Source of the DNA: an uncultured Thermoplasmatales archaeon
GTDB taxonomy: Archaea > Thermoplasmatota > E2 > DHVEG-1
Assembly (NCBI GenBank): GCA_964636235.1
Contig: CAZWQV010000004.1
Location: 3,257 to 67,256, forward strand
Direction of reading: 5' to 3'
DNA: 64,000 bases
Position 1 is the first letter of the stretch. Every line of letters starts with the position of its first letter. Made by a program: the position numbers and the translations under genes. Below, piece by piece: positions 24,779-64,000 of the stretch. Under the pieces are notes generated by a model. It searched no databases. It worked only from the letters and a program-made list of their open reading frames with translations, and was not told the DNA's origin.

Positions 24779-24785
24779 AAAAAAA

Positions 24786-24857: not shown

Positions 24858-24878
24858 AATTTTTTATATCTTTTGACA

Positions 24879-43870: not shown

Positions 43871-44998
43871 ATTAGAATAATACTCGGTACTCAGTTTCCA
43901 GATGTTAACGAGCAAATTTGGGGCGGTGTACAAGCAGTAAGTGTAAATTTATATCATGGATTTAACCAATTTAAAAATGATGATGATTTTCTTGTTGTTA
44001 GTGGTAGTAAAAAGAATCAGGGATATTCCAAATCGTTAAATGATGTGTATTTTATAAAAAAACCATGGTTTAAATTTGGAAGCATTTTTTTGTCAACCTA
44101 TCCTTATCGAATTAATAATTTTCTTAAAACAAATTCTTTTGATATAATAAATGCTCATACCTTAGATTTTGCCTCTGTTCATAAACAGTATAAAAAAAAG
44201 TTAATTTTCACACCACATGGTTTTAATTGGATAGAACAGAAATATATTCATCCACTGAAAAAGCCATTTTGGAACTTATTCTATGTAAGAAGATTCTTTT
44301 CCATTCTAAGACATGTTCAGTATTTGATTTCAATTAACCCATGTAGCACTGAAGAATTCGAACAATTTACTAATGCTACAATTTTTGATATTCCAAATCC
44401 AGTTTCTGATTCATTTTTTGATATTTCCCAAAAACCTTCTGTAAATTCATTTCTATGGATGGGTGTTATTTCAAAAATGAAAAATTTATATACTTTACTT
44501 AAAGCTCTAGTGATTATAAAAGAAAAGAAAAAAGATTTTACCTTGTATGTTGCAGGAAAAATCGATGATATTGAATATTACCGGCAATTAACATTATTTA
44601 TAGCGCAAAAGGGACTACAAGACCATGTGGTATTTCTAGGCGTTATTAACAATCATAGAAAAATTGAATATTTTTCAAAAATGTCCTTTTTTATTTTAAC
44701 ATCTTTTAACGAGCATGCTCCAATGGTTATATCAGAATCATTTGCAGCTTCTCGACCAGTGATCGCATCTAATGTTGGAGGCATTCCTTATATGATAGAG
44801 GAAAATAAAACTGGTTTTCTTGTTGACCCCAATAATGAACAGCAGATTGCTGATAAAATATTATTTTTATTAGAAAATACCTCAATAGCAGAAAAAATGG
44901 GATTTAATGCAAGGCAAGTTGCTTTAAAACAAAATGTATTATCACTTGTTATTGAAAGATATAGACGAGCTTATAGTTATGTTTATGAAAATCTATAG
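43871..44998 (+). CDS. GT4 family glycosyltransferase (GT-B); start inferred at a non-canonical ATT
   Basis: The conserved GT4 N-domain (RIILGTQFPDVNEQIWGGVQ...) lies upstream of the first in-frame ATG/GTG/TTG (44045). GGAGG at 43858-43862 sits exactly 8 nt before ATT 43871. C-domain has EHAPMVISESFAASRPVIASNVGGIPYMI. Confidence 0.55.
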   Translation: MRIILGTQFPDVNEQIWGGVQAVSVNLYHGFNQFKNDDDFLVVSGSKKNQGYSKSLNDVYFIKKPWFKFGSIFLSTYPYRINNFLKTNSFDIINAHTLDFASVHKQYKKKLIFTPHGFNWIEQKYIHPLKKPFWNLFYVRRFFSILRHVQYLISINPCSTEEFEQFTNATIFDIPNPVSDSFFDISQKPSVNSFLWMGVISKMKNLYTLLKALVIIKEKKKDFTLYVAGKIDDIEYYRQLTLFIAQKGLQDHVVFLGVINNHRKIEYFSKMSFFILTSFNEHAPMVISESFAASRPVIASNVGGIPYMIEENKTGFLVDPNNEQQIADKILFLLENTSIAEKMGFNARQVALKQNVLSLVIERYRRAYSYVYENL

Positions 44999-45032
44999 AT
45001 GAATGTGTATTAATTGAACTAAGGTAATTAGA

Positions 45033-46868: not shown

Positions 46869-46950
46869 AATGGTATATTAATAAGTATTTAGAAATATAT
46901 ATTAATGATATTATGTATGAATATAAAAAAGGATATAAATAAATATATTT

Positions 46951-48141
46951 TTGATGATCTTTATGAATAAAAGGTATGTTATTAAAGAAATTAATTCATG
47001 GGGGGAATTCATAAAATTAGAATCCGCATGGGACCATCTCATTCAATTACAATCAAAACATGCATTATTTTTGTCTTTTCCGATAATGAAACATTTTTTT
47101 AAAGTAATATATGATTCATATGAAGATATAAAAATTAAAATTATTCTCATAAATAATGATAAAAATGAGCTGAAAGGAATTATCCCATTTACAATTGAAA
47201 AAAAACGATTTGCACGAATCATTCCTTTCTATAAATTAGGTATTAAGGATAATATTATCGGTCTGTTTACTTTCCTTTTAGACCCAGCTGAGAATATTTC
47301 ACAAATGATGGATGAATTGTTTAGATATCTACGAACACACAAAAGCAAATGGGATATTCTTTCTTTACATCATGTTCCTTCTGATATGAATGGTATTGAT
47401 GATTTTTTATCTCTTGGTTCAAAAAATTTTAACATTAAAATAAATGAAACAAAAACACTTGTTGTTGCTAAACCTGTAGAATTTGCTGACATTCTTTCTC
47501 AAATGAATGGCAAAAAAAGAAGGGAAATGAAACGCAAGATACGGCGACTTTCTGAGGATGGTGACCTGGAATTGGTTTCCATAAATGATCATACCAAGAT
47601 AGAACAATATCTTCCAACTTTTTTTGATATTGAAAATAACAATTGGAAGGGTAAAATGGGCACGTCTATTCTGAAATCACCCTATTTACCATTTTTTGAA
47701 CAAATGGCTTTGTATCTCTCAGAAAGAAAAAAGTTTCATTTATATCTATTAAAGATTAAAAAAGTGTTCGTCTCAGGAATTTATGCTGTTATCGATAATG
47801 ATACATTATATTTTGTAAAGATTGGTTATGATGAAAATTATGCAAAATATTCTCCCTCGCTGGTATTATTTTATTTAGTATTTGAACAATTAACGAAACA
47901 ATACCAGATTCAATATATTGATTTTTTTGGCCCTATTGATTCCTATCAAACTATATTTGGTAAAACCACCAGAACATCCTATGACCTTACAATATTTAAT
48001 AGAAAACTTGTACCATCTTTTTATCATTTCACTTTAATGTTATTTAATAAAATACAGAATTATTCATTTGGGAAAAGGGTTATTAATACACTTTTAAAAA
48101 TTCCACTTCTTAAAGAAAAAATAAATAATATATATGAATAA
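46951..48141 (+). CDS. FemAB/CelD-like GNAT (Acetyltransf_6 family) protein
   Basis: C-terminal pattern ...LYFVKIGYDENYAKYSPSLVLFYLVFEQLTKQYQIQYIDFFGP, typical of BioF2-like/FemX-like GNATs. Confidence 0.45.
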   Translation: MMIFMNKRYVIKEINSWGEFIKLESAWDHLIQLQSKHALFLSFPIMKHFFKVIYDSYEDIKIKIILINNDKNELKGIIPFTIEKKRFARIIPFYKLGIKDNIIGLFTFLLDPAENISQMMDELFRYLRTHKSKWDILSLHHVPSDMNGIDDFLSLGSKNFNIKINETKTLVVAKPVEFADILSQMNGKKRREMKRKIRRLSEDGDLELVSINDHTKIEQYLPTFFDIENNNWKGKMGTSILKSPYLPFFEQMALYLSERKKFHLYLLKIKKVFVSGIYAVIDNDTLYFVKIGYDENYAKYSPSLVLFYLVFEQLTKQYQIQYIDFFGPIDSYQTIFGKTTRTSYDLTIFNRKLVPSFYHFTLMLFNKIQNYSFGKRVINTLLKIPLLKEKINNIYE

Positions 48142-48164
48142 ATGTATATTTTTATATATCATTA

Positions 48165-48698
48165 CTATTCTATTTTTTCCAACCATGCTTCTTTCCAAAA
48201 CAGATAACATGATCGGTTACATATTGGTCCAGCAACTGATAATTTCCCAGAACATGTAATCCCATCTAATAGCACAATTCCTTTTGCTTTGAAAAACTTG
48301 CACATCCGTTCATCAAAAAAATTATCTATTCTCTTATAGACAATTTGTTCGGTGTCGCAATATTGTATCATTTCATCCATAAAAGCACATCCTTCATAAC
48401 GATGGTTATTATCGAGAGTAGCAAATATTTCTTTCTTTGATTTTACTTTAACATGGTCGCCTGGTCTTAACTGTATTGGCTTGATTTCGGTCATTTCATT
48501 TTTTGTAGCAGATATAAAATTTCTTGTCTCTACATGTTTTATAAGTTGTTCAAGGGAATTGATAAAACCTTTTTTTAAAACATATATTATTAATTTTATC
48601 AAAGAAATTATTTTGCTTTGTATTTTAGCTGTTAACTCTTGCTGTTGAGCCATTGAATCAATATGATTTATCTGACATATTTTATCCATTTCATTCAC
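48165..48698 (-). CDS. Hypothetical protein with Cys-rich C-terminal half
   Basis: 177 aa with several Cys (C...C...CSG...C), possibly metal-binding. Divergent from neighbours. Confidence 0.3.
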   Translation of the reverse strand: MNEMDKICQINHIDSMAQQQELTAKIQSKIISLIKLIIYVLKKGFINSLEQLIKHVETRNFISATKNEMTEIKPIQLRPGDHVKVKSKKEIFATLDNNHRYEGCAFMDEMIQYCDTEQIVYKRIDNFFDERMCKFFKAKGIVLLDGITCSGKLSVAGPICNRSCYLFWKEAWLEKIE

Positions 48699-48935
48699 AT
48701 TTTTTCCAATCTTTGAATAAATCGTTAGATTGGATATAAAGTGGAATCTATTATGCTTTACTCCTTTTAATATAAATGCAAAATAAAAAAATATATGTTT
48801 AAGGATTTGATTTAAAAAAATTTGTAAAAATTATTTCAATAAATATTATAATATATCAAGTATTTCAGGTATAAATAATAAAAAAATTAATTGAGGGAAC
48901 TAAAGGTTAACAATATGCATTTGGGGGAACTATGA

Positions 48936-49961
48936 TTGACGAATCTTTCTGTTTCTATCCTTGAATCGATTCATGATGCTGATAAAAATCAATGGAATAA
49001 TCTTATCAATCAATCAAATGTAGGTTCAATATTTCAAAGATACGAATGGTTAAACGTTTTGGAGAAAGGATTACAATTAAAACCAAAACATATCTTGATA
49101 TCGAAAGATAATAATCCATTAGGTATTTTCCCCCATTTTATTATCAATGAACAAAAAGAACCATTTCAAAAATTATGTTCTGTTTCCCCCGGATTTGGAG
49201 GTCCAGTTATTGGAAAAGGCGAGGATGCGATTCTACCTTTAATGTTCCAACAAATCCCTAAAATATGTAAAGGTAAAATAGCACTTCACACCATGATTTT
49301 AAACAATTTGAATTATGTAAAATATGGTAAATTTCTTTTCAAATCTGGTTATCAGATGTCGCTTGATGGCCTTCGTTTTTATATAAATCTAAAAAATTCT
49401 TATGATGAACTTCTTAGCAATATGGATCATCATAAAAGAAAGGAGTTTAAAAAAATAAAGAAAACATTATATTCTGTAATTGAGCAAAAAAATAGTATAG
49501 ATTTTATTTCCAATTTCTATAAGGATTATACTGATTCATTAGAAAAAAATAATGTCTCTTCTTATCCATTTATCTTCTTTGAAACACTGTTAAAAGAAAT
49601 GAAAGATAATGTAAAAATATTTACTGCAATTGTCGATGATGTTGCCATTGGATCTGTTCTATGTATTCTTGATAATGAAAAAAATGTGATTCATGGATTT
49701 TTTTCAGCGATTCCTAGTAAATATTTGCATTTAAAACCATGGATTATGCTTCATGATTTTATTGTCCAATGGGGAAAAGATAAATCATTTCAATTCTATG
49801 ATCTCGGTGAAACACCTGCAGATTTTCTTGATTCAATATTCAAATATAAACAGGGGTTTGGCGGTTCCATCCATCCAATAATGTTGTGGGAAAAAAATTA
49901 CTCATTTATAAGATGGAATATATTTAAATCAGGTAGATATATATATCGTAAGTTATCTTGA
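48936..49961 (+). CDS. FemAB/CelD-like GNAT (Acetyltransf_6 family) protein; TTG start
   Basis: TTG at 48936 preceded by a GGGGGA SD. N-terminus SILESIHDADKNQWNNL...IFQRYEWLNV, typical of this family. Confidence 0.45.
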   Translation: MTNLSVSILESIHDADKNQWNNLINQSNVGSIFQRYEWLNVLEKGLQLKPKHILISKDNNPLGIFPHFIINEQKEPFQKLCSVSPGFGGPVIGKGEDAILPLMFQQIPKICKGKIALHTMILNNLNYVKYGKFLFKSGYQMSLDGLRFYINLKNSYDELLSNMDHHKRKEFKKIKKTLYSVIEQKNSIDFISNFYKDYTDSLEKNNVSSYPFIFFETLLKEMKDNVKIFTAIVDDVAIGSVLCILDNEKNVIHGFFSAIPSKYLHLKPWIMLHDFIVQWGKDKSFQFYDLGETPADFLDSIFKYKQGFGGSIHPIMLWEKNYSFIRWNIFKSGRYIYRKLS

Positions 49962-50042
49962 TCCTTGGATAAGATACTAAAGGATACCTAAAACAAATGG
50001 TGATATGTAATATAATACTATAAGGAAACGGGAGTATTTGAT

Positions 50043-51644
50043 ATGAGGGCAATTATTTTTGGTATTGATGGTGCAACATTCAACATTCTTCTTCCCATGA
50101 TAAAAAAGGGGCTCGTACCCAATATTAGTACTTCTTTTCATCATGGAGTCCATGGAAAATTACGTAGTGTATTTCCTCCTATAACGTTTCCAGCATGGAC
50201 TTCTTTTAAAACTGGAAAAAATCCTGCAAAACATGGAGTTTTTGATTTTTTAAAAGACGTTCCATATATGGATGATAAACCCTCAAAAGTATCTATTGCT
50301 GATAAAAAAGAACGATCATTTTTTTCATTATTAAGTGATTATGGGTATAAGCTTGGAGTACAAAATGTTCCTGCCACGTATCCGCCTGAAAAAATAAATG
50401 GAGTCTTTATATCTGGATTTAGTACGCCCAGCCTGCAACATTCTTTCACTTATCCGGAGAGTTTAAAACAGATACTGATGGATCAATTTGACTATGAATT
50501 TGATATTATCGAAAAAAGAATTGTTGGAAGGGAAGAAGAATTTCTACAACGATTAAAGGATACGACAGAAAAAATTGCAAAGACTGCTTGTTATCTTCTT
50601 AAACAAGATAACTATGATTTTTTTATGGTAAATTTTATGGCAGTTGACCAAATCCAGCATTTTTTCTATGGTTATAGAGATGCCAACCATCCGTTATATA
50701 CTCCTGAAAAAAAGAAATATGGATTAAAAATTGAGGAAATGTATCAACTCATTGATGAACAGATTGGAATAATCCAAAATCAGAACCCTGATCCCATTAA
50801 CATATTCTTTGTTTCTGATCATGGGTTTGGTCCATTAGAAAAAGTAGTTTATTTAAATGAATGGCTGCGAATGCAAGGGTTATTAACATTAAAAAATCAA
50901 CAGCAACCTCATCATAAAATAAACGCGGCAATTACTCAATTTCTTAATTCAATTGTTGAACATTTTCCAGATAGTCTTATTCGATTTGTTCCCCAATCAA
51001 TGAAAAATAAAGCAAATACGATTGTCTCCTGGACACAAGTGATAGATTGGAACAATACCAAAGCATATTCTGGAGGATATCCTGGAAAGATTTTTATTAA
51101 TATTAAAGGAAGAGAAAAAGAAGGAATTATTGAAAGGGGAAAAGAATATGATCAGCTGATATCAGAGATAAAAGAAAAAGCATGGCAGATGAAAGATCCT
51201 GAGACTGGAGAACTCATTGTCAGTGCTATCTATCAAAACCATGAAATGTATAATGGTAAATACTTTGATATTGCTCCTGATTTAATTATCATTATGAAAG
51301 ACATGGCCTATTTAAATAAACCTGGTTTTAATCATGGCAATATGATAGTGCCACCACCACAAGGAGGAGATCATAGGTTACATGGGATTTTTATTGCCAG
51401 TGGACCAGACATTGGTTATCAAAAAGAACCTTTGCATGATATTCACATCTGTGATATTGCACCAACAATACTACATATGTATAATGTTCCATTACTTTCA
51501 GATTTTGATGGAAAGGTATTAACTCAAATATTTAAAGAAAGTTCGCATTTCTTGGAACCATTAATATCAACAAAAAAGAATGATACTGAGAAAATCCTAT
51601 TAGATGATACAATTCAATTATTAAAACAAAAAAAGAAATTATAA
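50043..51644 (+). CDS. Alkaline phosphatase-family protein (type I phosphodiesterase/nucleotide pyrophosphatase-like)
   Basis: N-terminal IIFGIDGATFN metal-site motif and a downstream DHGF. Confidence 0.5.
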   Translation: MRAIIFGIDGATFNILLPMIKKGLVPNISTSFHHGVHGKLRSVFPPITFPAWTSFKTGKNPAKHGVFDFLKDVPYMDDKPSKVSIADKKERSFFSLLSDYGYKLGVQNVPATYPPEKINGVFISGFSTPSLQHSFTYPESLKQILMDQFDYEFDIIEKRIVGREEEFLQRLKDTTEKIAKTACYLLKQDNYDFFMVNFMAVDQIQHFFYGYRDANHPLYTPEKKKYGLKIEEMYQLIDEQIGIIQNQNPDPINIFFVSDHGFGPLEKVVYLNEWLRMQGLLTLKNQQQPHHKINAAITQFLNSIVEHFPDSLIRFVPQSMKNKANTIVSWTQVIDWNNTKAYSGGYPGKIFINIKGREKEGIIERGKEYDQLISEIKEKAWQMKDPETGELIVSAIYQNHEMYNGKYFDIAPDLIIIMKDMAYLNKPGFNHGNMIVPPPQGGDHRLHGIFIASGPDIGYQKEPLHDIHICDIAPTILHMYNVPLLSDFDGKVLTQIFKESSHFLEPLISTKKNDTEKILLDDTIQLLKQKKKL

Positions 51645-51875
51645 GTATACTACAAAAATAAACTATATTTTATTATATAATTATCAAGTGCGATATCAAT
51701 CTTATTGATCATTCTCATATCTATTAGTTTTTTATAAACTAATTAAAAAAATATTTAAATAAATATTAAAATGTTTAGAAAAATTGATAATAGAAGGAAT
51801 GATTACTAATATCATCAATTAAACTTTGATATTAATACGAATGAAATTGATTGGTATAATACTAATGATTCATGG

Positions 51876-52793
51876 ATGGTTAATGGTGTGGAAAAAGTAA
51901 CCGTAATACTGGCGACCTATAATAGAAAACAATTTTTAAAGACTGCTTTAAATAGTATTTTACAACAGAGCTATCCAGTACATGAAATAATTGTTGTTGA
52001 TGATCATTCAGATTATGATATTATCTCATTTCTCAAGGAATATGAAAAGAAGATAACAATAATTATTAATTCCAGTCGAAAAGGCTCAGCATACACATAT
52101 AATAAAGGAATTAGACAAAGTCATTCTGAGTATATTACAATTCTTAATGATGATGATATTTTTCATCCTACTAAAATTGAAAAACAATTAACCATTTTAC
52201 AACAAAATACTAACCTAGGTTTAGTCTATTGTCCGATTGGTTCCTTTTATAACAATAATATATTGTACGAACCAATAACAAAGCAAAAAAATAGATGGAT
52301 TGGCCTTCGTCATCTCAATAATATCGGTATAACACCGCTTATTAAAAAAGAATGTTTTGATAGGTGTGGATTATTTGATACTGATTTATCTTATAATGAA
52401 GATCGAGACCTTTGGTATCGAATAGGTAAACAGTATGCTTTTGGTTTTCATCCAGATCCATTATACATCGAATATAATCATAATATCCCTCGTCTCTCTT
52501 CCTCATTGAAAGATATTTGTGATGGAAGAATTGCACTATATAGAAAACATGCACATGATTTCGATTTAAAAAGTGAGTATTATTCCAATCTATTTTTTGA
52601 ATTAGCTCAAGAACATCAATTATTTGGCGATTATACCAATTATTTATCATATCTGATAAAATCATTACAATATAAACCTTCTCAATTAATTGAATATTTA
52701 CAGGTTCCGATTGAAAAAGTAATAGCGAAAAAATATTATAGTTCTGATGAAAGCATCATAAAATTATTAAATAATGGGGGGAAATTATATTAG
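51876..52793 (+). CDS. GT2 family glycosyltransferase
   Basis: VTVILATYNRKQFLKTALNSILQQSYPVHEIIVVDDHS, with a DDD motif. Confidence 0.7.
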   Translation: MVNGVEKVTVILATYNRKQFLKTALNSILQQSYPVHEIIVVDDHSDYDIISFLKEYEKKITIIINSSRKGSAYTYNKGIRQSHSEYITILNDDDIFHPTKIEKQLTILQQNTNLGLVYCPIGSFYNNNILYEPITKQKNRWIGLRHLNNIGITPLIKKECFDRCGLFDTDLSYNEDRDLWYRIGKQYAFGFHPDPLYIEYNHNIPRLSSSLKDICDGRIALYRKHAHDFDLKSEYYSNLFFELAQEHQLFGDYTNYLSYLIKSLQYKPSQLIEYLQVPIEKVIAKKYYSSDESIIKLLNNGGKLY

Positions 52794-54210
52794 TACTGGT
52801 TTTAAGAGTAAAAATTGGTTAGTTCTTAATTTACCGGATACTCCAACAAATGTTATTAGTAGGAGTTGGGCCGGTACTTTTGGAACAGCTGAGATAAAAA
52901 CACAACAAAAAGTACGAAGATTTCTACCAATTTGGATGCTCTATACAATTTCAGCATTAATCAATGATAGCGCATCGTTTCGGGTAATGGATGCTCAAGC
53001 TGAAGGCCTTGATAATAATCAAACGTATGAAGCAATCAAGAAAATGAACCCAGATGCTATCATAACCCTCATCTGTCTTCCATCTTATCATAATGATTGT
53101 GCATTGATAAAAAAGATAAAACAATCCTTTCCAGAAACAATTATTGTTATCCTTGGAGGTCTTGTATATATTGATCCACAAAAAATGTTAGAACAATCAG
53201 ATGCTGATATTCTTTTACACGCAAGATTTCCATTTTATAACTCTGTTAAAGCATTTCTTTCAAAGGGATTTGATGCAGATGGGATCATATATAAGAAAAG
53301 AAATAGTATTGAAATTAACCCTGCGATTGCAGATTCAAATGATCTTGATTATATTAATATACAAGCGTATGATTATTTACCACTTAATAAGTACATTCTC
53401 AGTGCAACAGATCGGGAGGGAAACACTATTTCATGGCTTCCTATTCTTACTGGTGTAGGATGCCCTTATTCCTGTACTTATTGTGCCTACCCGATTGCAT
53501 ATGGAAAAAAAATTCATTATAAGACTATTGATAAGATCATTGATGAGATACAACATATAGTAAAAACATATCATATTTCTGGATATTGTTTGCGAGATGT
53601 TGTTTTTACCAAAGATCGGGATAGAGTCATTAGTTTTTGTAAGAAATTAGAAGAAAAAAATCTTAAGATAAAATTTTTCTTTGAAACAAGAATTGGATTG
53701 CTAGATAAAAAACTTATTGATATCTTAAAAAAAGCGGGCTGCTTTCAAATGAATATAGGTGTAGAATCTGGAAGTCCTGATATTCTCAAAAAAGTAGGAA
53801 AACCAGGGATAAATATTAATCTGTTAAAAGAAACATTTCATTTATTAGACCAGGCTGGAATTAACACTATGGCTCATATTATTATTGGTCTACCTGGTGA
53901 AAATAAACACACTATAAAACAAACCTATAATCTATTGAAAAAAATACATGCGACAGAAGTAAATGTAAATTTTATTACTCCCTATCCTGGTACGAAATTT
54001 TATGATTATGCAACAAAGAATGATTTGATTTTAGATTATAATTGGGATAATTATACCAGCCATAATCTTGTAATGAAATCAGAGTATTTATCCGGAGAAA
54101 AATTGAAAAAACAAGGTATGAGACTTGAAAGAAAGCTATTTTTTTATAAATTACTTCATAATAAGCAATTTAGAATACAATGGATAAAAAATAGAAGAAA
54201 CCATGACTAA
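52774..54210 (+). CDS. B12-binding domain radical SAM protein
   Basis: N-terminal cobalamin-binding-like domain; CPYSCTYC (CxxxCxxC). The start may lie upstream, overlapping the previous gene. Confidence 0.65.
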   Translation: MGGNYISTGFKSKNWLVLNLPDTPTNVISRSWAGTFGTAEIKTQQKVRRFLPIWMLYTISALINDSASFRVMDAQAEGLDNNQTYEAIKKMNPDAIITLICLPSYHNDCALIKKIKQSFPETIIVILGGLVYIDPQKMLEQSDADILLHARFPFYNSVKAFLSKGFDADGIIYKKRNSIEINPAIADSNDLDYINIQAYDYLPLNKYILSATDREGNTISWLPILTGVGCPYSCTYCAYPIAYGKKIHYKTIDKIIDEIQHIVKTYHISGYCLRDVVFTKDRDRVISFCKKLEEKNLKIKFFFETRIGLLDKKLIDILKKAGCFQMNIGVESGSPDILKKVGKPGININLLKETFHLLDQAGINTMAHIIIGLPGENKHTIKQTYNLLKKIHATEVNVNFITPYPGTKFYDYATKNDLILDYNWDNYTSHNLVMKSEYLSGEKLKKQGMRLERKLFFYKLLHNKQFRIQWIKNRRNHD

Positions 54211-54228
54211 TAATTTTTATTTCTCTTT

Positions 54229-55728
54229 TTATCTTTGCTTAAGTAGCGAAATCATAAATTTCATTTCTTCTTTTTTCAATCCTTTTATAAGATATAAAAT
54301 AATGAAATATGCAATCATACTTAAAAAAATACAGGCTATAAGACTAAAAAATGATGCTGGTTGCCATACATAACAAATAATTCCAACAATGGCTGAAGCA
54401 AATAGGGTTTTGAATAATGTTGTTGGTTTTATTCCAAACCGCATCTCTTTCATAGAAAAGATTATGATAATTATAGCTGAAAAACAATAGGATAGTAGAG
54501 TGGCAACAGCAGCACCTAAAATACCATAATAGGGGATAAGACCAAAATTTAAGATGAGATTTAAGAGAGCAGTAATTGTAACAATAATACCAATTTTTGA
54601 TGTTTTTTTACTCATGCGCAAGGTCTTATCATAGATTACGAAGAGACCTGAGAAAAGTGAACTTATTGCAATGAGGGGTGTGATAAACCAGCCGTTTTCT
54701 GCTATGTTAGAAGTTGTAAAAAAAGATAATATTTGCTTTGATAAAAAAGAGAGACCTACAATTGCAGGCAGGGCTAATAATAAATAAATTTTAAGAATAA
54801 AACGAAGGTACATTTTCACTTTTGAAATATCTCCCTCATCAAAAAATTTTGCAATTGTGGGCATTAAAACAAAATCAAATAATTCAACAACCATAAAAAA
54901 AAGAAAACCAACATTATATGCAGCTGCATAAATACCAACATTTGAAAATTCCATATAAAAACTTATTACATAACGATCACTAAACATGATTATCCATAGG
55001 GAAATTCCGGTTGGAATCAGTGGAAGACCATATTTTAAATATGTTTTTAAATCATGAAATCGGGGGAGTGAAATCCCAATTTCTGAAAAAATAATTACTA
55101 CATAAATAAAAACAAAACATATTTCTACAAATAAATAACCCTGAAGTGCACCAAAGATGCCGTTACCTAAATAGATCATATAAAATGCAAGGGCGATTTT
55201 TGCATAGTTATCAATAATTCTAAAGAAGGAATATAATTTAATTTTCCGTAATGAACGAAAATAAAATTGGCAAAGAATATTTGTTCCACCAATGAGAAAG
55301 ATAAATCCGGTTATAAACACAATATTTGTCTTATTATCGAAAAAATAATATGCAATTGTATCAGAAAAAATTATAAACAATAATAAGATAATAATTGAAA
55401 CAATAAATTTAAAAACTAAAATAGATAAAAAAAGTTGCTGTTTTTCACGTATTTTCTTTTTTGCTGGCAGAAAACGAACAAGAGCATTGTTTAATCCAAA
55501 GGATGCAATAGGACTTAAAATACCAATAGTTACCATAGCCTGTTGCCACAATCCATAACCATAGGCACCAAGTGTTTTTGTGATGAGTGGAATAAGAATG
55601 ATGCCACCAAGGGCAACTAAAATTTCAGCGATACCAACAAAACCAATATCCTTGATAAAGGTACCAATTTCAGAATGAGAAGAGTTATTATTTTTTGAAG
55701 ATGGAATCGTTTCGTTTTTTTGTTTCAT
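54229..55728 (-). CDS. Oligosaccharide flippase (Wzx/MOP superfamily polysaccharide biosynthesis protein)
   Basis: 499 aa with about 12-14 TM helices, of typical Wzx length, inside the glycan cluster. Confidence 0.55.
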   Translation of the reverse strand: MKQKNETIPSSKNNNSSHSEIGTFIKDIGFVGIAEILVALGGIILIPLITKTLGAYGYGLWQQAMVTIGILSPIASFGLNNALVRFLPAKKKIREKQQLFLSILVFKFIVSIIILLLFIIFSDTIAYYFFDNKTNIVFITGFIFLIGGTNILCQFYFRSLRKIKLYSFFRIIDNYAKIALAFYMIYLGNGIFGALQGYLFVEICFVFIYVVIIFSEIGISLPRFHDLKTYLKYGLPLIPTGISLWIIMFSDRYVISFYMEFSNVGIYAAAYNVGFLFFMVVELFDFVLMPTIAKFFDEGDISKVKMYLRFILKIYLLLALPAIVGLSFLSKQILSFFTTSNIAENGWFITPLIAISSLFSGLFVIYDKTLRMSKKTSKIGIIVTITALLNLILNFGLIPYYGILGAAVATLLSYCFSAIIIIIFSMKEMRFGIKPTTLFKTLFASAIVGIICYVWQPASFFSLIACIFLSMIAYFIILYLIKGLKKEEMKFMISLLKQR

Positions 55729-56017: not shown

Positions 56018-57295
56018 ATGAGGAATAAATTTTACTACTTTATGGTTAGTTTTTGTCTCTTATATATTATTATAAATAGTTCATTTGTTCTTGGATCTAC
56101 TCAGATTGAACCTGATAGTTTGGATAGTCCGATAAGAAAATATTTCAACAAACAAAAAATTTTATGGACATTTGATGATTATTATATATGTTATGATTTT
56201 CCACCCCATAGAGGTTTTTCTAATCTCACTAAAAGAATTATATCCTATGGCGGGCATGTGAATATAATGACAATTTTATTTCATGTTAATGAAGCAAAGG
56301 ATATTAAAAACTATTCCGTTATTGATGACTTAGGATGGGAACCACAGGAAATAAATAGAAGCTTAACATTTTTTTCACAGGAACATGTATATCCTGCATG
56401 TCATGGATGGGATGCAAGATCTGAACTATTAAACAATGCTTCTTTGGAAGAGGCATATGAAATTATAAACCATACACTTTGGAACTGGGAAAATAATTTT
56501 CATATACAACCAACGTTTTTCCTTGGTGATAGCACAAGTGGAAATTATAATATTACCCTTGCGTTAAAAAAATTTAGTGAAATATATTGGCCGGTTTATG
56601 GTGAAAATTTCCGCTGGGATCAAGAGGAACTTTTTTCTCCTCCAACAAGAGATACCCCTGCAATATCATACATAGGTAAAGAACCATATATAGCAATGTT
56701 TGATCCTTTATTTGGACTGCCTTGGGGCAATCCATGTGAATCGCTGGAAGATGCGCAAAATTTATTCATTAATCAAACTGAGAATAAGGAGATAATATTT
56801 ATCCGTGGACATCCATCTTCATTAAATAAGTCTGAAACAACTCCATACTATAGCCTTTGGATTGAATGGATCGATTGGATTTATCAAAACCACGAATTAA
56901 CTAACATTAATCATACCGAAGCAATTTATTATATTGCTGATAGAGAGGCATTTAAAATAGAACGGCAATCTCCTGACAAATTTATTATAAATTTATCTTC
57001 ATGTTCTTTTGATCATGATATTTTATTTTCACAACCTTATGATGGGTATTATTATAATTGGACATTGTATAGGGGGCAAAAGGAAGTTGCATCGTTTTAT
57101 GACGATTACACTATTCATTTATCTGCTGGTCAATCATACACAATGGAGACAAATGATAAAGTTGAGATTCCTTTAGAGAAAAATGCACAATATAAGAATA
57201 TTTATGAAAGAATACCTGGTTTGAATCTTATATTTTTGCTTCTTTGTTTTATTGTTATAAGCATTTTCATTAAAAAAATTCGAAACAAATCATAA
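56018..57295 (+). CDS. Secreted/anchored hypothetical protein (signal peptide, C-terminal TM + basic tail; possible deacetylase-like fold)
   Basis: N-terminal signal peptide; WTFDDYY motif; ends ...IPGLNLIFLLLCFIVISIFIKKIRNKS. Confidence 0.4.
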   Translation: MRNKFYYFMVSFCLLYIIINSSFVLGSTQIEPDSLDSPIRKYFNKQKILWTFDDYYICYDFPPHRGFSNLTKRIISYGGHVNIMTILFHVNEAKDIKNYSVIDDLGWEPQEINRSLTFFSQEHVYPACHGWDARSELLNNASLEEAYEIINHTLWNWENNFHIQPTFFLGDSTSGNYNITLALKKFSEIYWPVYGENFRWDQEELFSPPTRDTPAISYIGKEPYIAMFDPLFGLPWGNPCESLEDAQNLFINQTENKEIIFIRGHPSSLNKSETTPYYSLWIEWIDWIYQNHELTNINHTEAIYYIADREAFKIERQSPDKFIINLSSCSFDHDILFSQPYDGYYYNWTLYRGQKEVASFYDDYTIHLSAGQSYTMETNDKVEIPLEKNAQYKNIYERIPGLNLIFLLLCFIVISIFIKKIRNKS

Positions 57296-57435: not shown

Positions 57436-58947
57436 ATGAAATTGCCTAATTTACTCGTGTTCTCGAGTATAATGCTATTAGTATTGAGTAGCGTATCATT
57501 TATTAATTTAGTTTCTGCTGAAACAGAATGTTCAATTACCATTAATTTACCAAATAATCCAGTTACGTTAATCGTTAACAATGGAATTAGTAGTTATTTT
57601 CAAATGAATCTTACTGGGTTTCATTCTGAAAATGATATTACAAATGGGTCTTATCTTGGTTGGTGTGCCCAAAGAACTACGAAAATCAGCAGGGGCGTAT
57701 CCCATGGGGTATGGGTTTGTTCTAGTTATGATTTAACTTCGTCTTTTTCATCTTTTGAATATGTATCATGGGATAAAATCAATTACATAATTAATCATAA
57801 GGACTATTTTGATAATGATCCAATAATAATTCAACAATTAATTTGGAATTTGACAGATAACATTTCGTATTCTGATCCAATCATAAATGGTTATTTGCAG
57901 GATATTAATATTAATGGATCTGGTTATTGCCCATCTGATGGTGACATTATTGCTATTCTTGTTAAAAGTGGGGATAATATAATAAATCCTCAAAGAACTT
58001 TTTTTGAAACAAATGTTCCTGATCAAAACGAGGATGAGCCATCTGAAGATGATGATGAAGGTGGTGTGGTCTATGGCAACCATCCACCAACGGCGGATGC
58101 CACTGCTGGAGAACCTTATCAAGGTTTTGTTGGGGAATCAATTCTCTTTGATGGTTCATTAAGTTATGATGTTGATGGATGGATTAGAGCCTACTATTGG
58201 CAATTTGGTGATGGTCAAACAGGGACAGGTAGGACGTATTCCCAAGTTTTCAATGATGAAGGTATTTACTCAGTTTTATTAACAGTTGAGGATAATGATG
58301 GTGCAACAAATGGGTATTCTACTTCAGTTGAAATTCTAAGTGCAAATCAACCTCCAAGAAGTCCCACTCTTACCGGGCAAAGAGATATAGAAATTGATAC
58401 GATTACGCCCTTCACGGTAGTAGCAATTGATGAAGATAACGATACGATTCGATATATTATTGATTGGGGTGATGGAACAAATACTACTACTACAGATTTT
58501 TATGAAAATAACACCCCTGTTACTGTTTATCATTCCTGGTCTTCATCTAATTTATATTTAGTAAAGGTATTTGCAGAAGATGATTTAGGTAGTCCTTCTG
58601 ATACAACTCAACAATTTGTTTTTGTGAATGTAACTGTAATATTCATTGATGATGACATAGAGGGATATTTAATTGATTTTGGAAAAGATGGGCTCTTTGA
58701 CTCATTTCATAATAATGGAACTGGCATGGATACAGATGTTGAAAAGAATTCTGACGGATGGTATTTAATCGATAGTAACAATGATGGAGAATGGAATTAT
58801 CAGTATAGAGCAGATATAGGATTATTACCATATCAAATAGAACAACAAAAATTCAATTACACCTATATTATCCTCATTCTGGCTGCGATCATAATAATAA
58901 TCATTATAGCTTTCTTATATAAAAAAAGAAATATTCTAATCAAATAA
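57436..58947 (+). CDS. Surface protein, PKD-domain family member B (paralog of 33860..35452)
   Basis: Signal peptide; GWC N-domain; PKD signatures (YYWQFGDGQ, DNDTIRYIIDWGDG); C-module YLIDFGKDG...IDSNNDGEWN; ends TM + KKRNILIK. Confidence 0.7.
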   Translation: MKLPNLLVFSSIMLLVLSSVSFINLVSAETECSITINLPNNPVTLIVNNGISSYFQMNLTGFHSENDITNGSYLGWCAQRTTKISRGVSHGVWVCSSYDLTSSFSSFEYVSWDKINYIINHKDYFDNDPIIIQQLIWNLTDNISYSDPIINGYLQDININGSGYCPSDGDIIAILVKSGDNIINPQRTFFETNVPDQNEDEPSEDDDEGGVVYGNHPPTADATAGEPYQGFVGESILFDGSLSYDVDGWIRAYYWQFGDGQTGTGRTYSQVFNDEGIYSVLLTVEDNDGATNGYSTSVEILSANQPPRSPTLTGQRDIEIDTITPFTVVAIDEDNDTIRYIIDWGDGTNTTTTDFYENNTPVTVYHSWSSSNLYLVKVFAEDDLGSPSDTTQQFVFVNVTVIFIDDDIEGYLIDFGKDGLFDSFHNNGTGMDTDVEKNSDGWYLIDSNNDGEWNYQYRADIGLLPYQIEQQKFNYTYIILILAAIIIIIIIAFLYKKRNILIK

Positions 58948-59083: not shown

Positions 59084-61942
59084 ATGAAGAAACAATGGAT
59101 TATATTATTAATTGTAATGATAATAATTTTTCTTCTTTTTATACAATATTTTCAAATGAATTGTAATATTCCGCTAAAACCTAATGAGTCTTTAAATCCT
59201 GATGAATGTGGTGGTTTTATTGCAACAGGTTCAGTCTGTATAAATAATAGAAGTATGCTATTAAAGAATAGACATAGTGATAAACCAGGAACCATGAAAC
59301 CTTTTTATTATCAGGGAACTAATTACTCATTTATTGCTTTTGGAACATATAGCAAAGAGGTTGGAAGACCATATTGTCGCATGGGCATAAATGAAAAAGG
59401 TCTTTCTATAGGAAATTTTGATCAATCCGAACTTATCTCCGATGGGAATTGGAACTATATTTCAGATCATATTAGCGAAAATGAAGATTATGATATGTGG
59501 TACATATTAGGAAATTTTGATACAGTTAAAACTGCTGCAACATGGCTTGTTCATCATGCCTCTTATCCTTGCCAATGGGCAATTGTAAGTAAAGAAAAAG
59601 GGGTGGGGGCTATTGTTGCAATGGATAAAGAGTATCATGGGAATATTTCTTGGATAAATAATACATATATGGCTCTTGGAAATCGATTGTATTGTGAGCA
59701 ACAATTTAATGCTCAAATGAGGAGAACTCAGTATCTAGCGGATCAGATATATTATCATGGGATTGGCATAGAATCAACCATACCATATGCATTTTCGATA
59801 AAAGATATTGCCCTCATTTTAGCAAAAGATATCAATGCAAGTAATAACCAGTATCCTTGGTTACAAGAACCAGCATCAGGTATATATTCAGGTTACTATA
59901 TCATTGGCCAAACCGGCTCAATATGCCCGACTAGTTCCACATCATGTATGCTTGCAGTTTCAGGTGATGACAAATATAATGACTCAACAAATCTTGTTTT
60001 TTTTACTTCAGGTTATAATCCACATATAGGTCTTTTTGTTCCTATTAGTGCATCATATTTAAAAGATCAAGATGATATTCCTTTAGTATTCAGAACTGAA
60101 ATTGGTATACAACAATTTACTAATGTAGCTCAATCATATGCAGAGAATATCCCGGGTTACTATAATCGATCAAGAACGCACTATATTCATAATACAACTG
60201 ATAAATTAGAAAGTGAAATGATAGAATCATATGAGGCCATTGTTAACTTAATCCCTATCAATGAATCATATACAAATGTTCAGCATATAATACAATCATA
60301 TTGTTATAATCAGACATATAATGCTTTATCTCAATATAGAGATCTTTTTATTAAATCAATCACCCTTATTATACCCAATGAATCATATGTTTGTGGCAAT
60401 GTACAATATGTGTTTAATAAAACGTTACCATTTTATCCTTTTGAGCATACATCAGATGTCTTGATTTTAAATTCTACTGTTTGTAAAATTGATGCATTTG
60501 AACCATTGAATATTACTATAACTTATCTTAATGAGAATACACAGATAACTAAAGATGATGAATTATTAATGGAATGGTATTCAACTCCTGCAGGACGACA
60601 TGTTATTTTCAATTATTCAGGATTTAAACCATATTGCTTCTATAAAATAATTCATAATAATCAAACCACTATTATTCAATCAACATCAAAAGGTCATATA
60701 CTATATTTTTCAGTATTAGAAAAAGAAAATCATTTTCAAATACAAACAGTAAATTACACTGATAAATCTCCGACAGCCGATTTCACATTTACACCATCGA
60801 ATCCAATTGAAGGGGAGAGAGTTAGCTTTAATGCATCAATGTCATATGATGATGGAAATGATATTCAATATTACTGGGATTTAAATGATGATCATATTGT
60901 GGATCAGCAGGGTAAAAAAATTCATCATGAATTCACAACGGCAGGGACTTACTATGTTAACTTAACCATAAAAGATACCTCAAATCAATCTGATTGGATA
61001 GTAAGAGCTATCGTTATTCAAAAACCATCAAATTCAAAAAAATCTGGATCTGATAGTTCAAATCTACCAGAGTATAATATTAATACTCCTCCCAAATGCA
61101 TCTGTTCGATGGAACCGTTGCACGTATCAATCAATGAAACAATTCTTTTTAATGCCTCAGAAAGTTATGATCCCGATGGAACAATTGTCAGTTATTATTG
61201 GGATTTCGGTGATTCACATAATGAAGAAGGAAAAATCTGTAACCATACCTTCATGAAAGATGGAAGATATATGGTCATTTTAACAGTAATTGACGATGAT
61301 GGAGCAATGGATACAAATACAACATATATAATGGTACATCAACAAAACTTACCCCCCTCTCAATTAATCATTCAAGGTGAAACTTGTCTAGAAATAAATG
61401 TATCTTATCCTTTTTTCTTTCATGCAATAGATGTTGATGATGATTTTCTCAATCTTACTGTTGATTGGGGCGATGGAACACGAGATTCTACATGTATTTT
61501 GAATAATATTACATTTCCTCTTAATCATAGCTGGCAAAAAAGTGGAGAATATATCATTAAAGCACACGTTTCAGATGAATTCAAGTCTTTATCAGAATCA
61601 GTTGAATATAAATTAATTGCTGGAGAAATTGTATGTAAAATAGATGCTGAGATAAAGGGATATATTCTAAAACTAACATCGGAACCCAGATCGTTAATCT
61701 TTTATGATAACGAAACAAAAATTCATTATGATGTAAAGGAAAAAAATAATGGAACATACATAATTGATTATGAAAATGATGACTCATGGAAATATGGTAT
61801 TGCCTCAAATGGAATAGTTTATCTCAATATTCAATTTGAACAAAAAGAGACATCAGCAATAGAATTCAAATGGGTGATACTATGTGGGTTGATTGCTAGT
61901 CTTTGTTATTTTTTTATGATAAAAAAAATGATTAAAAAATAA
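59084..61942 (+). CDS. Large surface protein: N-terminal Cys-containing domain (possible Ntn-hydrolase-like) + 3 PKD domains + shared C-module + TM/basic tail
   Basis: 952 aa with signal peptide. PKD signatures (YYWDLNDDH, SYYWDFGDSH, NLTVDWGDGT). C-terminal IIDYENDDSWKYG module, then TM and MIKKMIKK. Confidence 0.65.
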   Translation: MKKQWIILLIVMIIIFLLFIQYFQMNCNIPLKPNESLNPDECGGFIATGSVCINNRSMLLKNRHSDKPGTMKPFYYQGTNYSFIAFGTYSKEVGRPYCRMGINEKGLSIGNFDQSELISDGNWNYISDHISENEDYDMWYILGNFDTVKTAATWLVHHASYPCQWAIVSKEKGVGAIVAMDKEYHGNISWINNTYMALGNRLYCEQQFNAQMRRTQYLADQIYYHGIGIESTIPYAFSIKDIALILAKDINASNNQYPWLQEPASGIYSGYYIIGQTGSICPTSSTSCMLAVSGDDKYNDSTNLVFFTSGYNPHIGLFVPISASYLKDQDDIPLVFRTEIGIQQFTNVAQSYAENIPGYYNRSRTHYIHNTTDKLESEMIESYEAIVNLIPINESYTNVQHIIQSYCYNQTYNALSQYRDLFIKSITLIIPNESYVCGNVQYVFNKTLPFYPFEHTSDVLILNSTVCKIDAFEPLNITITYLNENTQITKDDELLMEWYSTPAGRHVIFNYSGFKPYCFYKIIHNNQTTIIQSTSKGHILYFSVLEKENHFQIQTVNYTDKSPTADFTFTPSNPIEGERVSFNASMSYDDGNDIQYYWDLNDDHIVDQQGKKIHHEFTTAGTYYVNLTIKDTSNQSDWIVRAIVIQKPSNSKKSGSDSSNLPEYNINTPPKCICSMEPLHVSINETILFNASESYDPDGTIVSYYWDFGDSHNEEGKICNHTFMKDGRYMVILTVIDDDGAMDTNTTYIMVHQQNLPPSQLIIQGETCLEINVSYPFFFHAIDVDDDFLNLTVDWGDGTRDSTCILNNITFPLNHSWQKSGEYIIKAHVSDEFKSLSESVEYKLIAGEIVCKIDAEIKGYILKLTSEPRSLIFYDNETKIHYDVKEKNNGTYIIDYENDDSWKYGIASNGIVYLNIQFEQKETSAIEFKWVILCGLIASLCYFFMIKKMIKK

Positions 61943-62072: not shown

Positions 62073-62615
62073 ATGCTGAATAAAAAAAATGATAATTTTA
62101 TTTCAAAAAACATTAAAACAATAAGAAATATGATAGAAACTAATAAAGAAGCGGTTCATTTCCTCCTAAAATTTTGTATTATTACTATACTTTTTTTTGC
62201 TGTTTTTTATGTAACAATTGGTTATTTTGAAGGATTATTAATTGGTACTGCATGGCTTGCAGGAACCCTTGCAAATCTCTTTGGTATGTCAGTTACTATC
62301 AATGGATCTTTGATAAATATAGGGTCAATGAATCTTGAGATAATCCCTGAATGCACAGGAATTTTCGCACTCTTTGTAACCATTGCTTGTATTCTATCTT
62401 ATCCTGCAGATATTAAAAAAAAAGTAGTTGGAATACTTCTTATCATTCCATTTATTTTCCTCCTCAATCTTTTTCGTCTTCTTATTTTGATTCTTGTTGG
62501 AAAATACTATATTGATATATTTGAATATGTTCATTCTTATCTTTGGCAAGCAACATTCCTTATTTTTATTATTTTAGGATGGTTCCTATGGATTGAGTTG
62601 GTGGTAAAGAAATGA
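62073..62615 (+). CDS. Archaeosortase/exosortase-family protein (short form)
   Basis: Polytopic, with conserved Cys in IIPECTGIFALF and Arg in LNLFRLL, as in exosortase/archaeosortase catalytic motifs. 180 aa. Confidence 0.55.
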   Translation: MLNKKNDNFISKNIKTIRNMIETNKEAVHFLLKFCIITILFFAVFYVTIGYFEGLLIGTAWLAGTLANLFGMSVTINGSLINIGSMNLEIIPECTGIFALFVTIACILSYPADIKKKVVGILLIIPFIFLLNLFRLLILILVGKYYIDIFEYVHSYLWQATFLIFIILGWFLWIELVVKK

Positions 62616-63304
62616 AAGATAAAATTTATTTTATTGGAAAATTTCTTATCCTTTCTTTTTTTCTTTTTCTTGTTTGGATAGTAGTTGGAAGATATTATCT
62701 TATATTATTATCCTACATCTCACAATTTATTTTATCACTTATGGGCTATAATGTTTCAATTGTAATAAATGAAAATATCATTTTTTCCTATTTGGGTTCT
62801 GAGATTAATCTAACCCACGCGGAGCTAACTAATTTTAATATTATTCCTTTTATTGCATTAGTACTTGCATCACCAATAACTTGGTTTAAACAACAAAGAT
62901 CCTTAATGATTGGCATTCCAATCATTTTTGTTTTTCATTTACTAAATCTCATTGCTCATTTTCCATATTATTATGAAGGAAATATGATCGCAGGTTTTAT
63001 CATTAATTTTTCATCAATCACTAGGTTAATCATACCATTTTTGTTGTGGTTTGCATTAACATATGATTCCATCCTTCCTTTATTTCGCATGAAAAAAAAG
63101 GAATATATCTGTCCAATTTGCTCGGAGAAAAAAACTGGAATTATTGATCATATCAATAAGAACCATAAAAATCTTAATGCGGAACAGAAAAAGAAAATTC
63201 ATCTATGGTATAAAAAACATCCTGAATTAATTCAATCTGATCAGAATAATAATGGCCATTCTTTTTATTTATATATGAGAAATTTATTTGATAAAAGTAG
63301 ATAA
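62612..63304 (+). CDS. Multi-TM membrane protein with C-terminal C2H2-like zinc finger (archaeosortase partner?)
   Basis: Start overlaps the archaeosortase stop (coupled). Five or six TM helices. CPICSEKKTGIIDHINKNH (C-x2-C-x9-H-x4-H). Confidence 0.4.
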   Translation: MKDKIYFIGKFLILSFFLFLVWIVVGRYYLILLSYISQFILSLMGYNVSIVINENIIFSYLGSEINLTHAELTNFNIIPFIALVLASPITWFKQQRSLMIGIPIIFVFHLLNLIAHFPYYYEGNMIAGFIINFSSITRLIIPFLLWFALTYDSILPLFRMKKKEYICPICSEKKTGIIDHINKNHKNLNAEQKKKIHLWYKKHPELIQSDQNNNGHSFYLYMRNLFDKSR

Positions 63305-63412
63305 AATTATTCTTAAAATATTATCATCAAAACAATTATATAATAAAATTTGTATCACAATTCATAGAAGAGCAGAATTCCTATTTGTCTGGGTGAGTTG
63401 GAGGAATTGAAA

Positions 63413-64000
63413 ATAAAGTATATTATCCTAATTCTACTGGTATGTATCCTATTGAATGGAGTATTGTTACAACCTTTAATAAAAGCAGATGACGTAGAAG
63501 TAAATTCAGTAAGAGAATATATACATAATAAAACAAAAGGAATATATAATTCAGAAGGCTTTTTTTCAAGTGATCTAACCAGCAATACGGTTCAAATAGC
63601 TATTGATAACTTGAAATCAAATAGTGGAACAGTATGGGTTACGGGAAATATTCATCTTGTATCAACAATTCATCCTCGATCATATGTATCGATAAATTTT
63701 TTAGGTAATACAATTGAAGTTGAAGCTAATGTTCCCGTTATTTCTTATGCTCAAAATACATTATTTTCCAATGTTAAAAATGCAGTCATTCTGTTGCCAA
63801 GTTTTTATGACCGTCCAGTTTTTTTGATGGATAATAATGGGATGGATGGCGGAAATGATGCAATTGATTTCAATAATATTGAAAATATCATTATCAACTG
63901 TGAAAAATCATACCAATATACCGGCATTCATATGAAACTTGATGGAATAAATGAAATGTGGAATAATGTATTTAAAAATATAATAATGAATGGTCCAAAA
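63413..64000 (+). CDS. Secreted right-handed beta-helix (pectin-lyase fold-like) protein, 5' part; start inferred at ATA (or upstream TTG)
   Basis: GGAGG at 63400-63404 sits 8 nt before ATA 63413, giving MKYIILILLVCILLNGVLLQPLIKA|DD. NxxG/beta-helix-like repeats follow. The ORF runs off the window end. Confidence 0.4.
   Translation, partial: MKYIILILLVCILLNGVLLQPLIKADDVEVNSVREYIHNKTKGIYNSEGFFSSDLTSNTVQIAIDNLKSNSGTVWVTGNIHLVSTIHPRSYVSINFLGNTIEVEANVPVISYAQNTLFSNVKNAVILLPSFYDRPVFLMDNNGMDGGNDAIDFNNIENIIINCEKSYQYTGIHMKLDGINEMWNNVFKNIIMNGPK

Follow-up and report, generated by a model that had tools for sequence, protein, structure and literature searches.

A mini archaeosortase of the ArtB/XrtH clade and its predicted pseudo-enzyme partner in an uncultured Thermoplasmatales archaeon

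We analyzed a 64,000-nucleotide (nt) stretch of DNA from an uncultured Thermoplasmatales archaeon (GenBank assembly GCA_964636235.1, contig CAZWQV010000004.1, positions 3,257 to 67,256 of the forward strand), referred to below as the window. Near its end, two overlapping plus-strand genes encode a 180–amino acid (aa) protein (62073-62615) and a 230-aa membrane protein (62612-63304). We consider it likely that the two products work together as an ArtB/XrtH-clade archaeosortase with two subunits, the 180-aa protein being the catalytic one and the 230-aa protein a pseudo-enzyme, and that the cognate substrates, with C-terminal signals of the VPxxxP/IPTL type, are probably encoded elsewhere in the genome. 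The sorting of surface proteins by exosortases and archaeosortases is widespread, but the mechanism of these enzymes is unsettled. An earlier analysis of the window made without database searches (the sequence-only reading) had proposed that the pair is an undescribed archaeosortase subtype with a dedicated partner and a noncanonical recognition signal.

The 180-aa protein passes both superfamily models, TIGR04178 (64 bits; cutoff, 23) and PF09721 (44.7 bits; cutoff, 25.7). The Cys (ECTG) and Arg (LFRLL) motifs pointed out in the sequence-only reading are indeed present and invariant in homologs. The first is E93-C94-T95-G96 (62349-62360; Cys codon TGC, 62352-62354). The second, N132-L-F-R135 (62466-62477) within “LNLFRLL,” supplies a conserved Asn and the putative catalytic Arg (codon CGT, 62475-62477). 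Together with H154 in “EYVHSYLWQ” (62532-62534), these residues complete Cys/Arg/His, the presumed catalytic triad of the exosortase/archaeosortase superfamily (Haft preprint 10.1101/2023.06.07.544157). Cys94, Asn132, Arg135, and His154 are invariant in an alignment of 8 sortase homologs and in 23 proteins in which the sortase is fused to the partner. Identity as a CAAX/CPBP protease (PF02517 or related), which the sequence-only reading had given as an example of an outcome that would overturn the assignment, was dropped: PF09721 was the only family reported for the protein at an E value of ≤1, with no CAAX/CPBP match.

Among subtype models, ArtB (TIGR04144) fits the 180-aa protein best (87.4 bits, under the cutoff of 150, with 146 of the 156 positions aligned), and XrtH (TIGR04177) is second (69.5 bits; cutoff, 86). 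Scores with ArtE (60.8 bits; cutoff, 95) and pacearchaeosortase (30.7 bits; cutoff, 80) are also below cutoff, as is that with ArtA (TIGR04125; 32.8 bits; cutoff, 75), where only profile positions 69-201 of 271 are covered. The homologs come from metagenome-assembled genomes of uncultured Thermoplasmatota/Thermoplasmatales; one that is 59% identical is labeled “archaeosortase B (VPXXXP-CTERM-specific)” by the Joint Genome Institute (JGI), and relatives at 30 to 40% identity pass the XrtH cutoff. Judged by these scores and alignments, the enzyme falls within the known ArtB/XrtH mini-sortase clade, where it forms a divergent branch, and the term “undescribed subtype” is too strong. Its length, noted earlier as much shorter than that of ArtA, is not unusual either. 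The ArtB, XrtH, ArtE, and pacearchaeosortase profiles have 153 to 167 positions. Since the window enzyme aligns end to end with the 153- to 158-position ArtB/XrtH/ArtE profiles, spanning nearly all of each, small size is normal for the group. No second sortase, such as ArtA, was found among the open reading frames (ORFs) of the window with local hidden Markov models (HMMs), a search of limited sensitivity for distant ArtA.

The 230-aa partner passes no curated family model. Its sub-cutoff matches are weak: ArtE at an E value of 0.037 (residues 2-121), NF041730 at 13.9 bits and an E value of 0.033 (cutoff, 35 bits), and zf-Di19 at 19.7 bits (cutoff, 27.5). Homology to the sortase became apparent when alignments were compared. 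With hhalign, 16 partner homologs against 8 sortase homologs gave a probability of 94.6% and an E value of 6.5e-8, with partner residues 2-114 matching sortase residues 26-138. The register brings “NIIP” of the partner in line with “EIIP” of the sortase, and likewise “(S/Y)P” and “G.P.I.” In this alignment, the partner lacks a ten-residue segment that includes ECTG, and His109 and Asn112 of the partner stand opposite Asn132 and Arg135 of the sortase. The sortase HMM scored 10.4 to 20.6 bits on 13 real partner membrane domains, compared to a maximum of 4.1 bits on 780 shuffled sequences and negative scores on all reversed ones; these clean controls rule out a false match driven by composition. 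Weak HMM matches between the two families are reciprocal. The comparisons thus identify the partner as a Cys- and Arg-less paralog of the sortase with a C-terminal addition, a relationship that the sequence-only reading had missed. The homologous part is a four-transmembrane (TM) domain, residues 1-158 (62612-63085). We also considered that the partner might be the split-off N-terminal half of an eight-TM exosortase. This was rejected: the fusions have the catalytic half at the N terminus, and the region of the sortase that the partner matches is the catalytic core itself.

The homologs and an AlphaFold2 (AF2) model point to three parts in the partner: the pseudo-sortase membrane domain, a predicted cytoplasmic CCHH finger, and a helical tail. 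The model [mean predicted local distance difference test (pLDDT), 84; predicted template modeling score (pTM), 0.68] has, in order, a long N-terminal helix, a small β sheet (49-66), helices 77-86, 91-122, and 125-158, a β-β-α unit over the metal ligands, and C-terminal helices. The finger motif, C167-P-I-C170-x9-H180-x4-H185 (63110-63166), is modeled as two short strands and a helix (177-184; pLDDT, ~87). The C-x2-C-x9-H-x4-H pattern described in the sequence-only reading is therefore real, and CPxC-x9-H-x4-H is found in at least 90% of 16 close partner homologs; the protein does not end in it, the motif lying 45 residues ahead of the C terminus. Its x9 spacer misses the classical C2H2 spacing (C-x2-4-C-x12-H-x3-5-H), no Pfam zinc-finger model scores above cutoff, and in Foldseek the finger yields weak local matches to the C2H2 fingers of 2drp/CTCF with probabilities of ≤0.25. 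It is a short-spacer CCHH variant, and zinc binding is predicted. From the Lys/Arg distribution, both the sortase and the partner are predicted to have four TM helices with N and C termini inside. Such a topology would place the catalytic triad at the outer face of the membrane and the finger in the cytoplasm, and it fits the fusions, which link the C terminus of the sortase to the N terminus of the partner.

A word-indexed search for partner homologs gave 16 clusters, while an exhaustive profile search gave 216 cluster representatives at E values of ≤1e-3 and 71 at ≤1e-10. Fusions and fingers were parsed in the best 150 of the 216 matches. Three forms were found there: ~26 single-chain fusions and two kinds of unfused partner, one with the finger and the other, of ~150 to 190 aa, lacking it. 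The fusions are laid out as sortase, partner, and usually finger, and retain the Cys, Asn, Arg, and His solely in the N-terminal half. They include proteins of Candidatus Methanogaster/ANME-2 (anaerobic methanotrophic) archaea annotated as “exosortase H” (e.g., PXF60426.1, with 110.9 bits against the XrtH cutoff of 86), a Thermodesulfovibrionales “exosortase H” that has no finger, and one protein labeled ArtB by JGI. A Methanosarcinales fusion, P0036, scores 118.9 bits with ArtB; 47 of its 61 relatives are also sortase-partner fusions, and 39 of these 47 keep the finger. The AF2 model of a sortase-partner fusion is a compact single chain (pLDDT, 81.6; pTM, 0.72).

A sortase gene lies directly 5′ of the partner gene in 17 of 18 informative nonredundant loci, drawn from archaea and bacteria, genomes and metagenomes, usually with an overlap of 4 to 11 nt. 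Together with the ~26 and 47 fusions, this bears out the earlier proposal of a dedicated partner kept next to homologous sortases. Homologous loci are designated here by numbers preceded by L. At L025/L026 (1006-3071), ~640 base pairs separate the two genes and there is no overlap. At L035 (4156-4536), an N-terminally truncated orphan partner without an upstream sortase lies near two PGF-tailed proteins and may represent a decayed cassette. In the window, as had been noted before, the stop codon of the sortase gene overlaps the partner start: TGA and ATG share the ATGA at 62612-62615. A Shine-Dalgarno–like GGTGG (62600-62604, plus strand) ends 7 nt before that ATG. Overlaps of 4 to 11 nt recur in the Thermoplasmatota homologs L001, L004, L006, L007, L017-L019, L022, and L023, and the overlap suggests that sortase and partner are translationally coupled.

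The partner could instead be an independent, co-transcribed membrane protein, such as a zinc-finger regulator or sensor or an enzyme acting on the acceptor lipid, and not a sortase subunit at all. With its cytoplasmic CCHH finger and the basic helical tail behind it, the partner could contact nucleic acid or some other protein, and the close partner family has invariant polar residues of its own (H109, H116, N74, and N76). However, the existence of dozens of covalent fusions to the sortase speaks for a direct physical cooperation. About half of the partner family has no finger, and H109 and H116 are not conserved family-wide, where only Y29, L83, G101, P142, and W146 are. A lone short-spacer finger is, moreover, a poor sequence-specific DNA binder. 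We therefore regard an independent role for the partner as very unlikely. The finger, kept in most fusions, probably has an accessory role, structural or in interactions, rather than one in the catalytic mechanism, because about half of the family does without it.

A membrane protein dedicated to a mini-sortase is not a new idea, since NCBIfam already holds a model, NF041730, for an “exosortase H-associated membrane protein,” which the sequence-only reading had also missed. This model is matched by 22 of 127 partner-family members at E values of ≤1e-3 (best, 1.5e-6), and remote homology of the partner family to the NF041730 family, short of membership, is likely. P0041, a partner that lacks the finger, gives a weak sub-cutoff match (22 bits), and finger-bearing partners scanned singly gave none. 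No link between the NF041730 family and the finger was seen, P0041 being the one match looked at in detail.

The two subunits might act as follows. The catalytic subunit would hold Cys94, Arg135, and His154 at the outer face of the membrane within its four TM helices. The partner, probably an ancient sortase paralog of the same topology, should be unable to catalyze the reaction because the Cys-bearing segment and the Arg have been lost. It may serve as a pseudo-enzyme or scaffold that packs onto the catalytic subunit, the two together forming an eight-TM hetero-pseudo-dimer that is covalent in the fusions. The complex would bind the C-terminal helix of a substrate in the membrane and, by analogy with ArtA and the family, recognize a tripartite signal in which the TM helix directly follows a [V/I]P-type motif and leads into a basic cluster. 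Cleavage would take place after this motif at the outer face, and the protein would then probably be moved to a lipid anchor, as in the case of ArtA (PMC7157517).

Candidate signals for this clade were sought by checking ORFs neighboring homologous pairs for a C-terminal TM helix with a basic tail. Eight tails share VP[VILAS][FIL][STA][PT] followed by ~18 to 20 hydrophobic residues and an R/K cluster. Five come from Thermoplasmatota loci: AGVPVITP… (L001, two genes 3′ of the pair), SSVPIFSP… (L004), AGVPVFSP… (L014), and ASVPLFSP… (L019), the last three directly upstream of the sortase, and KAVPALSP… (L022, adjoining the pair). Two belong to the ANME-2 fusion locus L038: EVPAIAP…, located ~7.6 kb 5′ of the fusion gene and four genes off, and IVPALTP…, directly downstream and convergent. 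The eighth, YVPSLSTWG…, is from a bacterial substrate-sortase-partner cassette (L036, Terriglobales). Also at L038 (8893-9883), genes for MotA/ExbB-like and DUF2149 proteins immediately precede the fusion and separate it from the gene for a 2135-aa CARDB/PQQ surface protein.

The proteins that carry the eight tails are mutually unrelated (a caspase with PKD domains, two S8 subtilisins, a CglD-like protein, PQQ propellers, and proteins of unknown type), and therefore the likeness of the tails reflects a shared sorting signal and not orthology. A passage of PMC9723798, citing Haft 2012, describes ArtB as VPXXXP-CTERM-specific. By their sequence, the tails beside the homologs belong to the VPXXXP/IPTLxxWG class assigned to ArtB/XrtH, so the earlier proposal of a noncanonical signal does not hold for them. 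Curated models of short C-terminal signals did not match most of the tails and gave only sub-threshold matches to those of L022 and L036: the L022 tail scores 18.2 bits on IPTL-CTERM (TIGR04174; cutoff, 20.5), and “VPSLSTWG” of L036 scores 12.3 bits on IPTL-CTERM and has an E value of 9e-4 with midcut-by-XrtH.

Another type of tail was found beside archaeal pairs whose partners lack the finger. Their sortases pass the XrtH model and lie directly 3′ of small Thr/Pro-rich secreted proteins that end in “LIPGFE…RR.” Finger-less pairs with PGF-like tailed neighbors are located at L028 (9-737), L030 (6152-6958), L033 (6287-7051), and L035 (510-2493). The sortases of L025, L028, L030, and L033 score 90.7 to 98.3 bits with XrtH, and the ANME-2 fusions ~110. 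The PGF-like tails of these neighbors suggest that IPGF-type signals, usually attributed to ArtA, are processed by part of the ArtB/XrtH clade. All tails of pair neighbors have in common a [V/I]-P that directly adjoins the helix.

In the window, three genes upstream of the pair encode secreted proteins, each with a signal peptide, a C-terminal TM helix, and a basic tail. The sequence-only reading had described them as three C-terminally anchored PKD proteins and putative substrates. The anchoring is correct for all three, while PKD domains are present in two. The first protein (56018-57295, plus strand; 425 aa) has no Pfam or NCBIfam match and ends in “ERIPGLNLIF…KKIRNKS” (57212-57292). The second (57436-58947, plus strand; 503 aa; PKD_4, 82.8 bits) ends in a TM helix and KKR with no helix-abutting motif; the sole Pro near its tail, in “LLPY,” is 13 residues from the helix. 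The third (59084-61942, plus strand; 952 aa; three PKD domains; PKD_4, 130.8 bits) ends in a TM helix and KK, with no Pro-containing motif. Motifs of the exosortase type abut the TM helix without a spacer (Haft preprint 10.1101/2023.06.07.544157).

A profile built from the eight neighbor tails scored 53 to 64 bits on its own training tails. The best nontraining tail anywhere was that of the 425-aa protein (6.5 bits; E value, ~0.1). For the 503-aa PKD protein, the L001 ortholog scored 1.2 bits, and the window copy was not among the matches listed; for the 952-aa protein, the copy at L013, a locus from a 99%-identical strain with a tail that differs by one residue, scored 0.1 bit. The adjacency to substrates claimed earlier is thus weak. 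Signal evidence does not support the two PKD proteins as sortase substrates, despite an adjacency conserved with L001. Most likely, both are surface proteins anchored in the ordinary way by their TM helices and encoded in the same cell-surface island. Within the window, only the 425-aa protein with its “IPGLNL” qualifies as a candidate substrate, and a marginal one. Another PKD protein (33860-35452; 530 aa), 27 kb from the pair, ends in “SELPVQYLAIIG…MIKRR,” a C-terminal TM helix with KRR and no VPxxxP.

Several observations weigh against a two-subunit ArtB/XrtH-clade enzyme with VPxxxP/IPTL-type substrates. The 180-aa enzyme is under every curated subtype cutoff. No VPxxxP/IPTL-type tail was detected in the 64-kb window or the 4 kb that follow it (L013) by six-frame regular expressions and the tail HMM, and the VPVITP-tailed gene of L001 has no ortholog in the window lineage. 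The VPXXXP-CTERM model TIGR04143 gives only 9.7 bits on the L022 tail (cutoff, 30), and the “IPGFE” tails beside more distant pairs mean that specificity within the clade is not uniform. No relative was found in the PDB by sequence, with the sortase profile, or by fold, with the AF2 models of the partner and the fusion. With no cognate tail nearby, the signal assigned to the window enzyme is extrapolated from enzymes that are 48 to 59% identical to it.

The sub-cutoff scores and the lack of a local canonical tail would also fit the idea that this is a new archaeosortase subtype with a noncanonical signal that processes the three adjacent C-terminally anchored proteins, PKD proteins included. 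The shared architecture of the three proteins favors it, as does the order 425-aa/PKD/PKD/sortase/partner, which is kept in L001, where the pair is 59 to 68% identical. In addition, “IPGLNL” (“MIPGFEL” in the L001 ortholog) begins with [V/I]P like the tails beside other pairs and belongs to the top nontraining match of the tail profile. However, the tails of the three neighbors have no motif in common, and those of the PKD proteins have no Pro-containing helix-abutting motif and score ~0 to 1 bit. The Pro of “ERIPGLNL” is Ser in the L013 strain (“ERISGLNL”; 3407-4684). At four sister loci, L004, L014, and L019 among them, a VPxxxP protein takes the position directly upstream of the sortase instead, and at a fifth it immediately follows the pair. 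We therefore find processing of the three neighbors by a new subtype unlikely.

The local situation also raises the idea of a relic, in which the pair was retained after its dedicated substrate gene was lost and has no current function in the window lineage. At the place of the VPVITP-tailed gene of L001 (13038-14291), L013 has only a 92-aa ORF (12869-13496), and no cognate tail lies within 68 kb. The gene truncated by the end of L013, considered as a possible ortholog of the one for the VPVITP protein, turned out to be the ortholog of the next gene. Yet neither ORF of the pair is disrupted, none of the catalytic or family-invariant residues is missing, and the pair is 99 to 100% identical over at least five independent metagenome contigs. 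Substrates of exosortase-type enzymes are, besides, often scattered around the genome. We regard a functionless relic as highly improbable. A passage of PMC5244752 credits one genome with 5 VPXXXP-CTERM domains.

A bolder version of the two-subunit reading is that the whole ArtB/XrtH clade consists of obligate pseudo-dimers in which an eight-TM architecture is rebuilt, with the finger engaging the cytoplasmic tail of the substrate or another factor and so gating sorting from the inside in a way not described before; as a special case, the window branch would have shifted to a degenerate [I]P-G-[L/F] tail like that of the 425-aa neighbor. We put this forward tentatively and, on balance, doubt it.

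The window enzyme resembles ArtB with its VPXXXP-CTERM signal in mini-sortase size, in the Cys/Arg/His residues, and in its top subtype model, and proteins encoded next to homologous pairs or fusions have V-P-x-x-x-P, an abutting TM helix, and a basic cluster. It differs in scoring far under the 150-bit cutoff, in belonging to Thermoplasmatota and not Methanosarcinales, and in the lack of a VPxxxP tail in the window. In published descriptions of ArtB, we found no mention of a partner or a pseudo-sortase domain. With XrtH and NF041730, the pair shares the combination of a mini-sortase and a dedicated adjacent membrane protein, the weak match of the partner family, and tails near homologs that fall just under the thresholds of IPTL-CTERM and midcut-by-XrtH. 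In contrast to that system, both window proteins are under the respective cutoffs (69.5 versus 86 and 13.9 versus 35 bits), and the window holds nothing comparable to an IPTLxxWG-CTERM tail. Our literature search turned up no publication on XrtH or its associated protein and, with IPTLxxWG included, no description of a partner.

ArtA with PGF-CTERM, characterized experimentally in Haloferax volcanii (PMC7157517), is the model for cleavage of a C-terminal helix and lipid attachment; it belongs to the same superfamily and shares the presumed triad chemistry and the tripartite logic of the signal. Unlike the window enzyme, ArtA has a profile of 271 positions, a PGF signal instead of VPxxxP, and, as far as described, no paralogous partner. 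Our literature search found no description of the sortase neighbor as a degenerate sortase paralog, of its CCHH finger, or of the many fusions. By analogy only, iRhoms are catalytically dead paralogs retained beside the active rhomboid enzyme family. Their fold and family are unrelated, and the dead sortase paralog differs in being in the same operon as the active enzyme or fused to it, suggesting an obligate pseudo-dimer.

The sortase-partner region lies where a surface-glycan gene island ends. The biosynthetic genes of this island (44045-55728), which immediately precede those for the surface proteins, encode a GT1 and a GT2 glycosyltransferase, a pair of FemAB/GNAT-like acyltransferases, a type I phosphodiesterase, a radical SAM protein, and a Wzx/MurJ-like flippase. 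Downstream of the pair, a plus-strand gene starting at 63398 is cut by the window end (63398-64000). It continues in L013 (10787-12868), where its product is a secreted protein of 693 aa that has a signal peptide but neither a Pfam match nor a known domain, and its ortholog is kept 3′ of the pair in L001 (10770-12845; 691 aa). The only tRNA gene of the window, for tRNA-Gln (CTG), is on the minus strand at 24785-24858.

If the two-subunit organization holds for a large clade of archaea and bacteria, it would provide an architectural hypothesis for these enzymes, a hetero-pseudo-dimer of two four-TM halves, and a rule for reconstitution and structural work: both genes should be coexpressed, or natural fusions used. 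For annotation, the partner family, now recorded as “hypothetical protein,” could be named, and the Thermoplasmatota enzymes could be assigned to the VPxxxP/IPTL signal class. For the window itself, the adjacent PKD proteins should not be labeled as sortase substrates. Proteins with VPxxSP tails in uncultured Thermoplasmatota and ANME archaea could in turn be flagged as probable lipid-anchored surface proteins.

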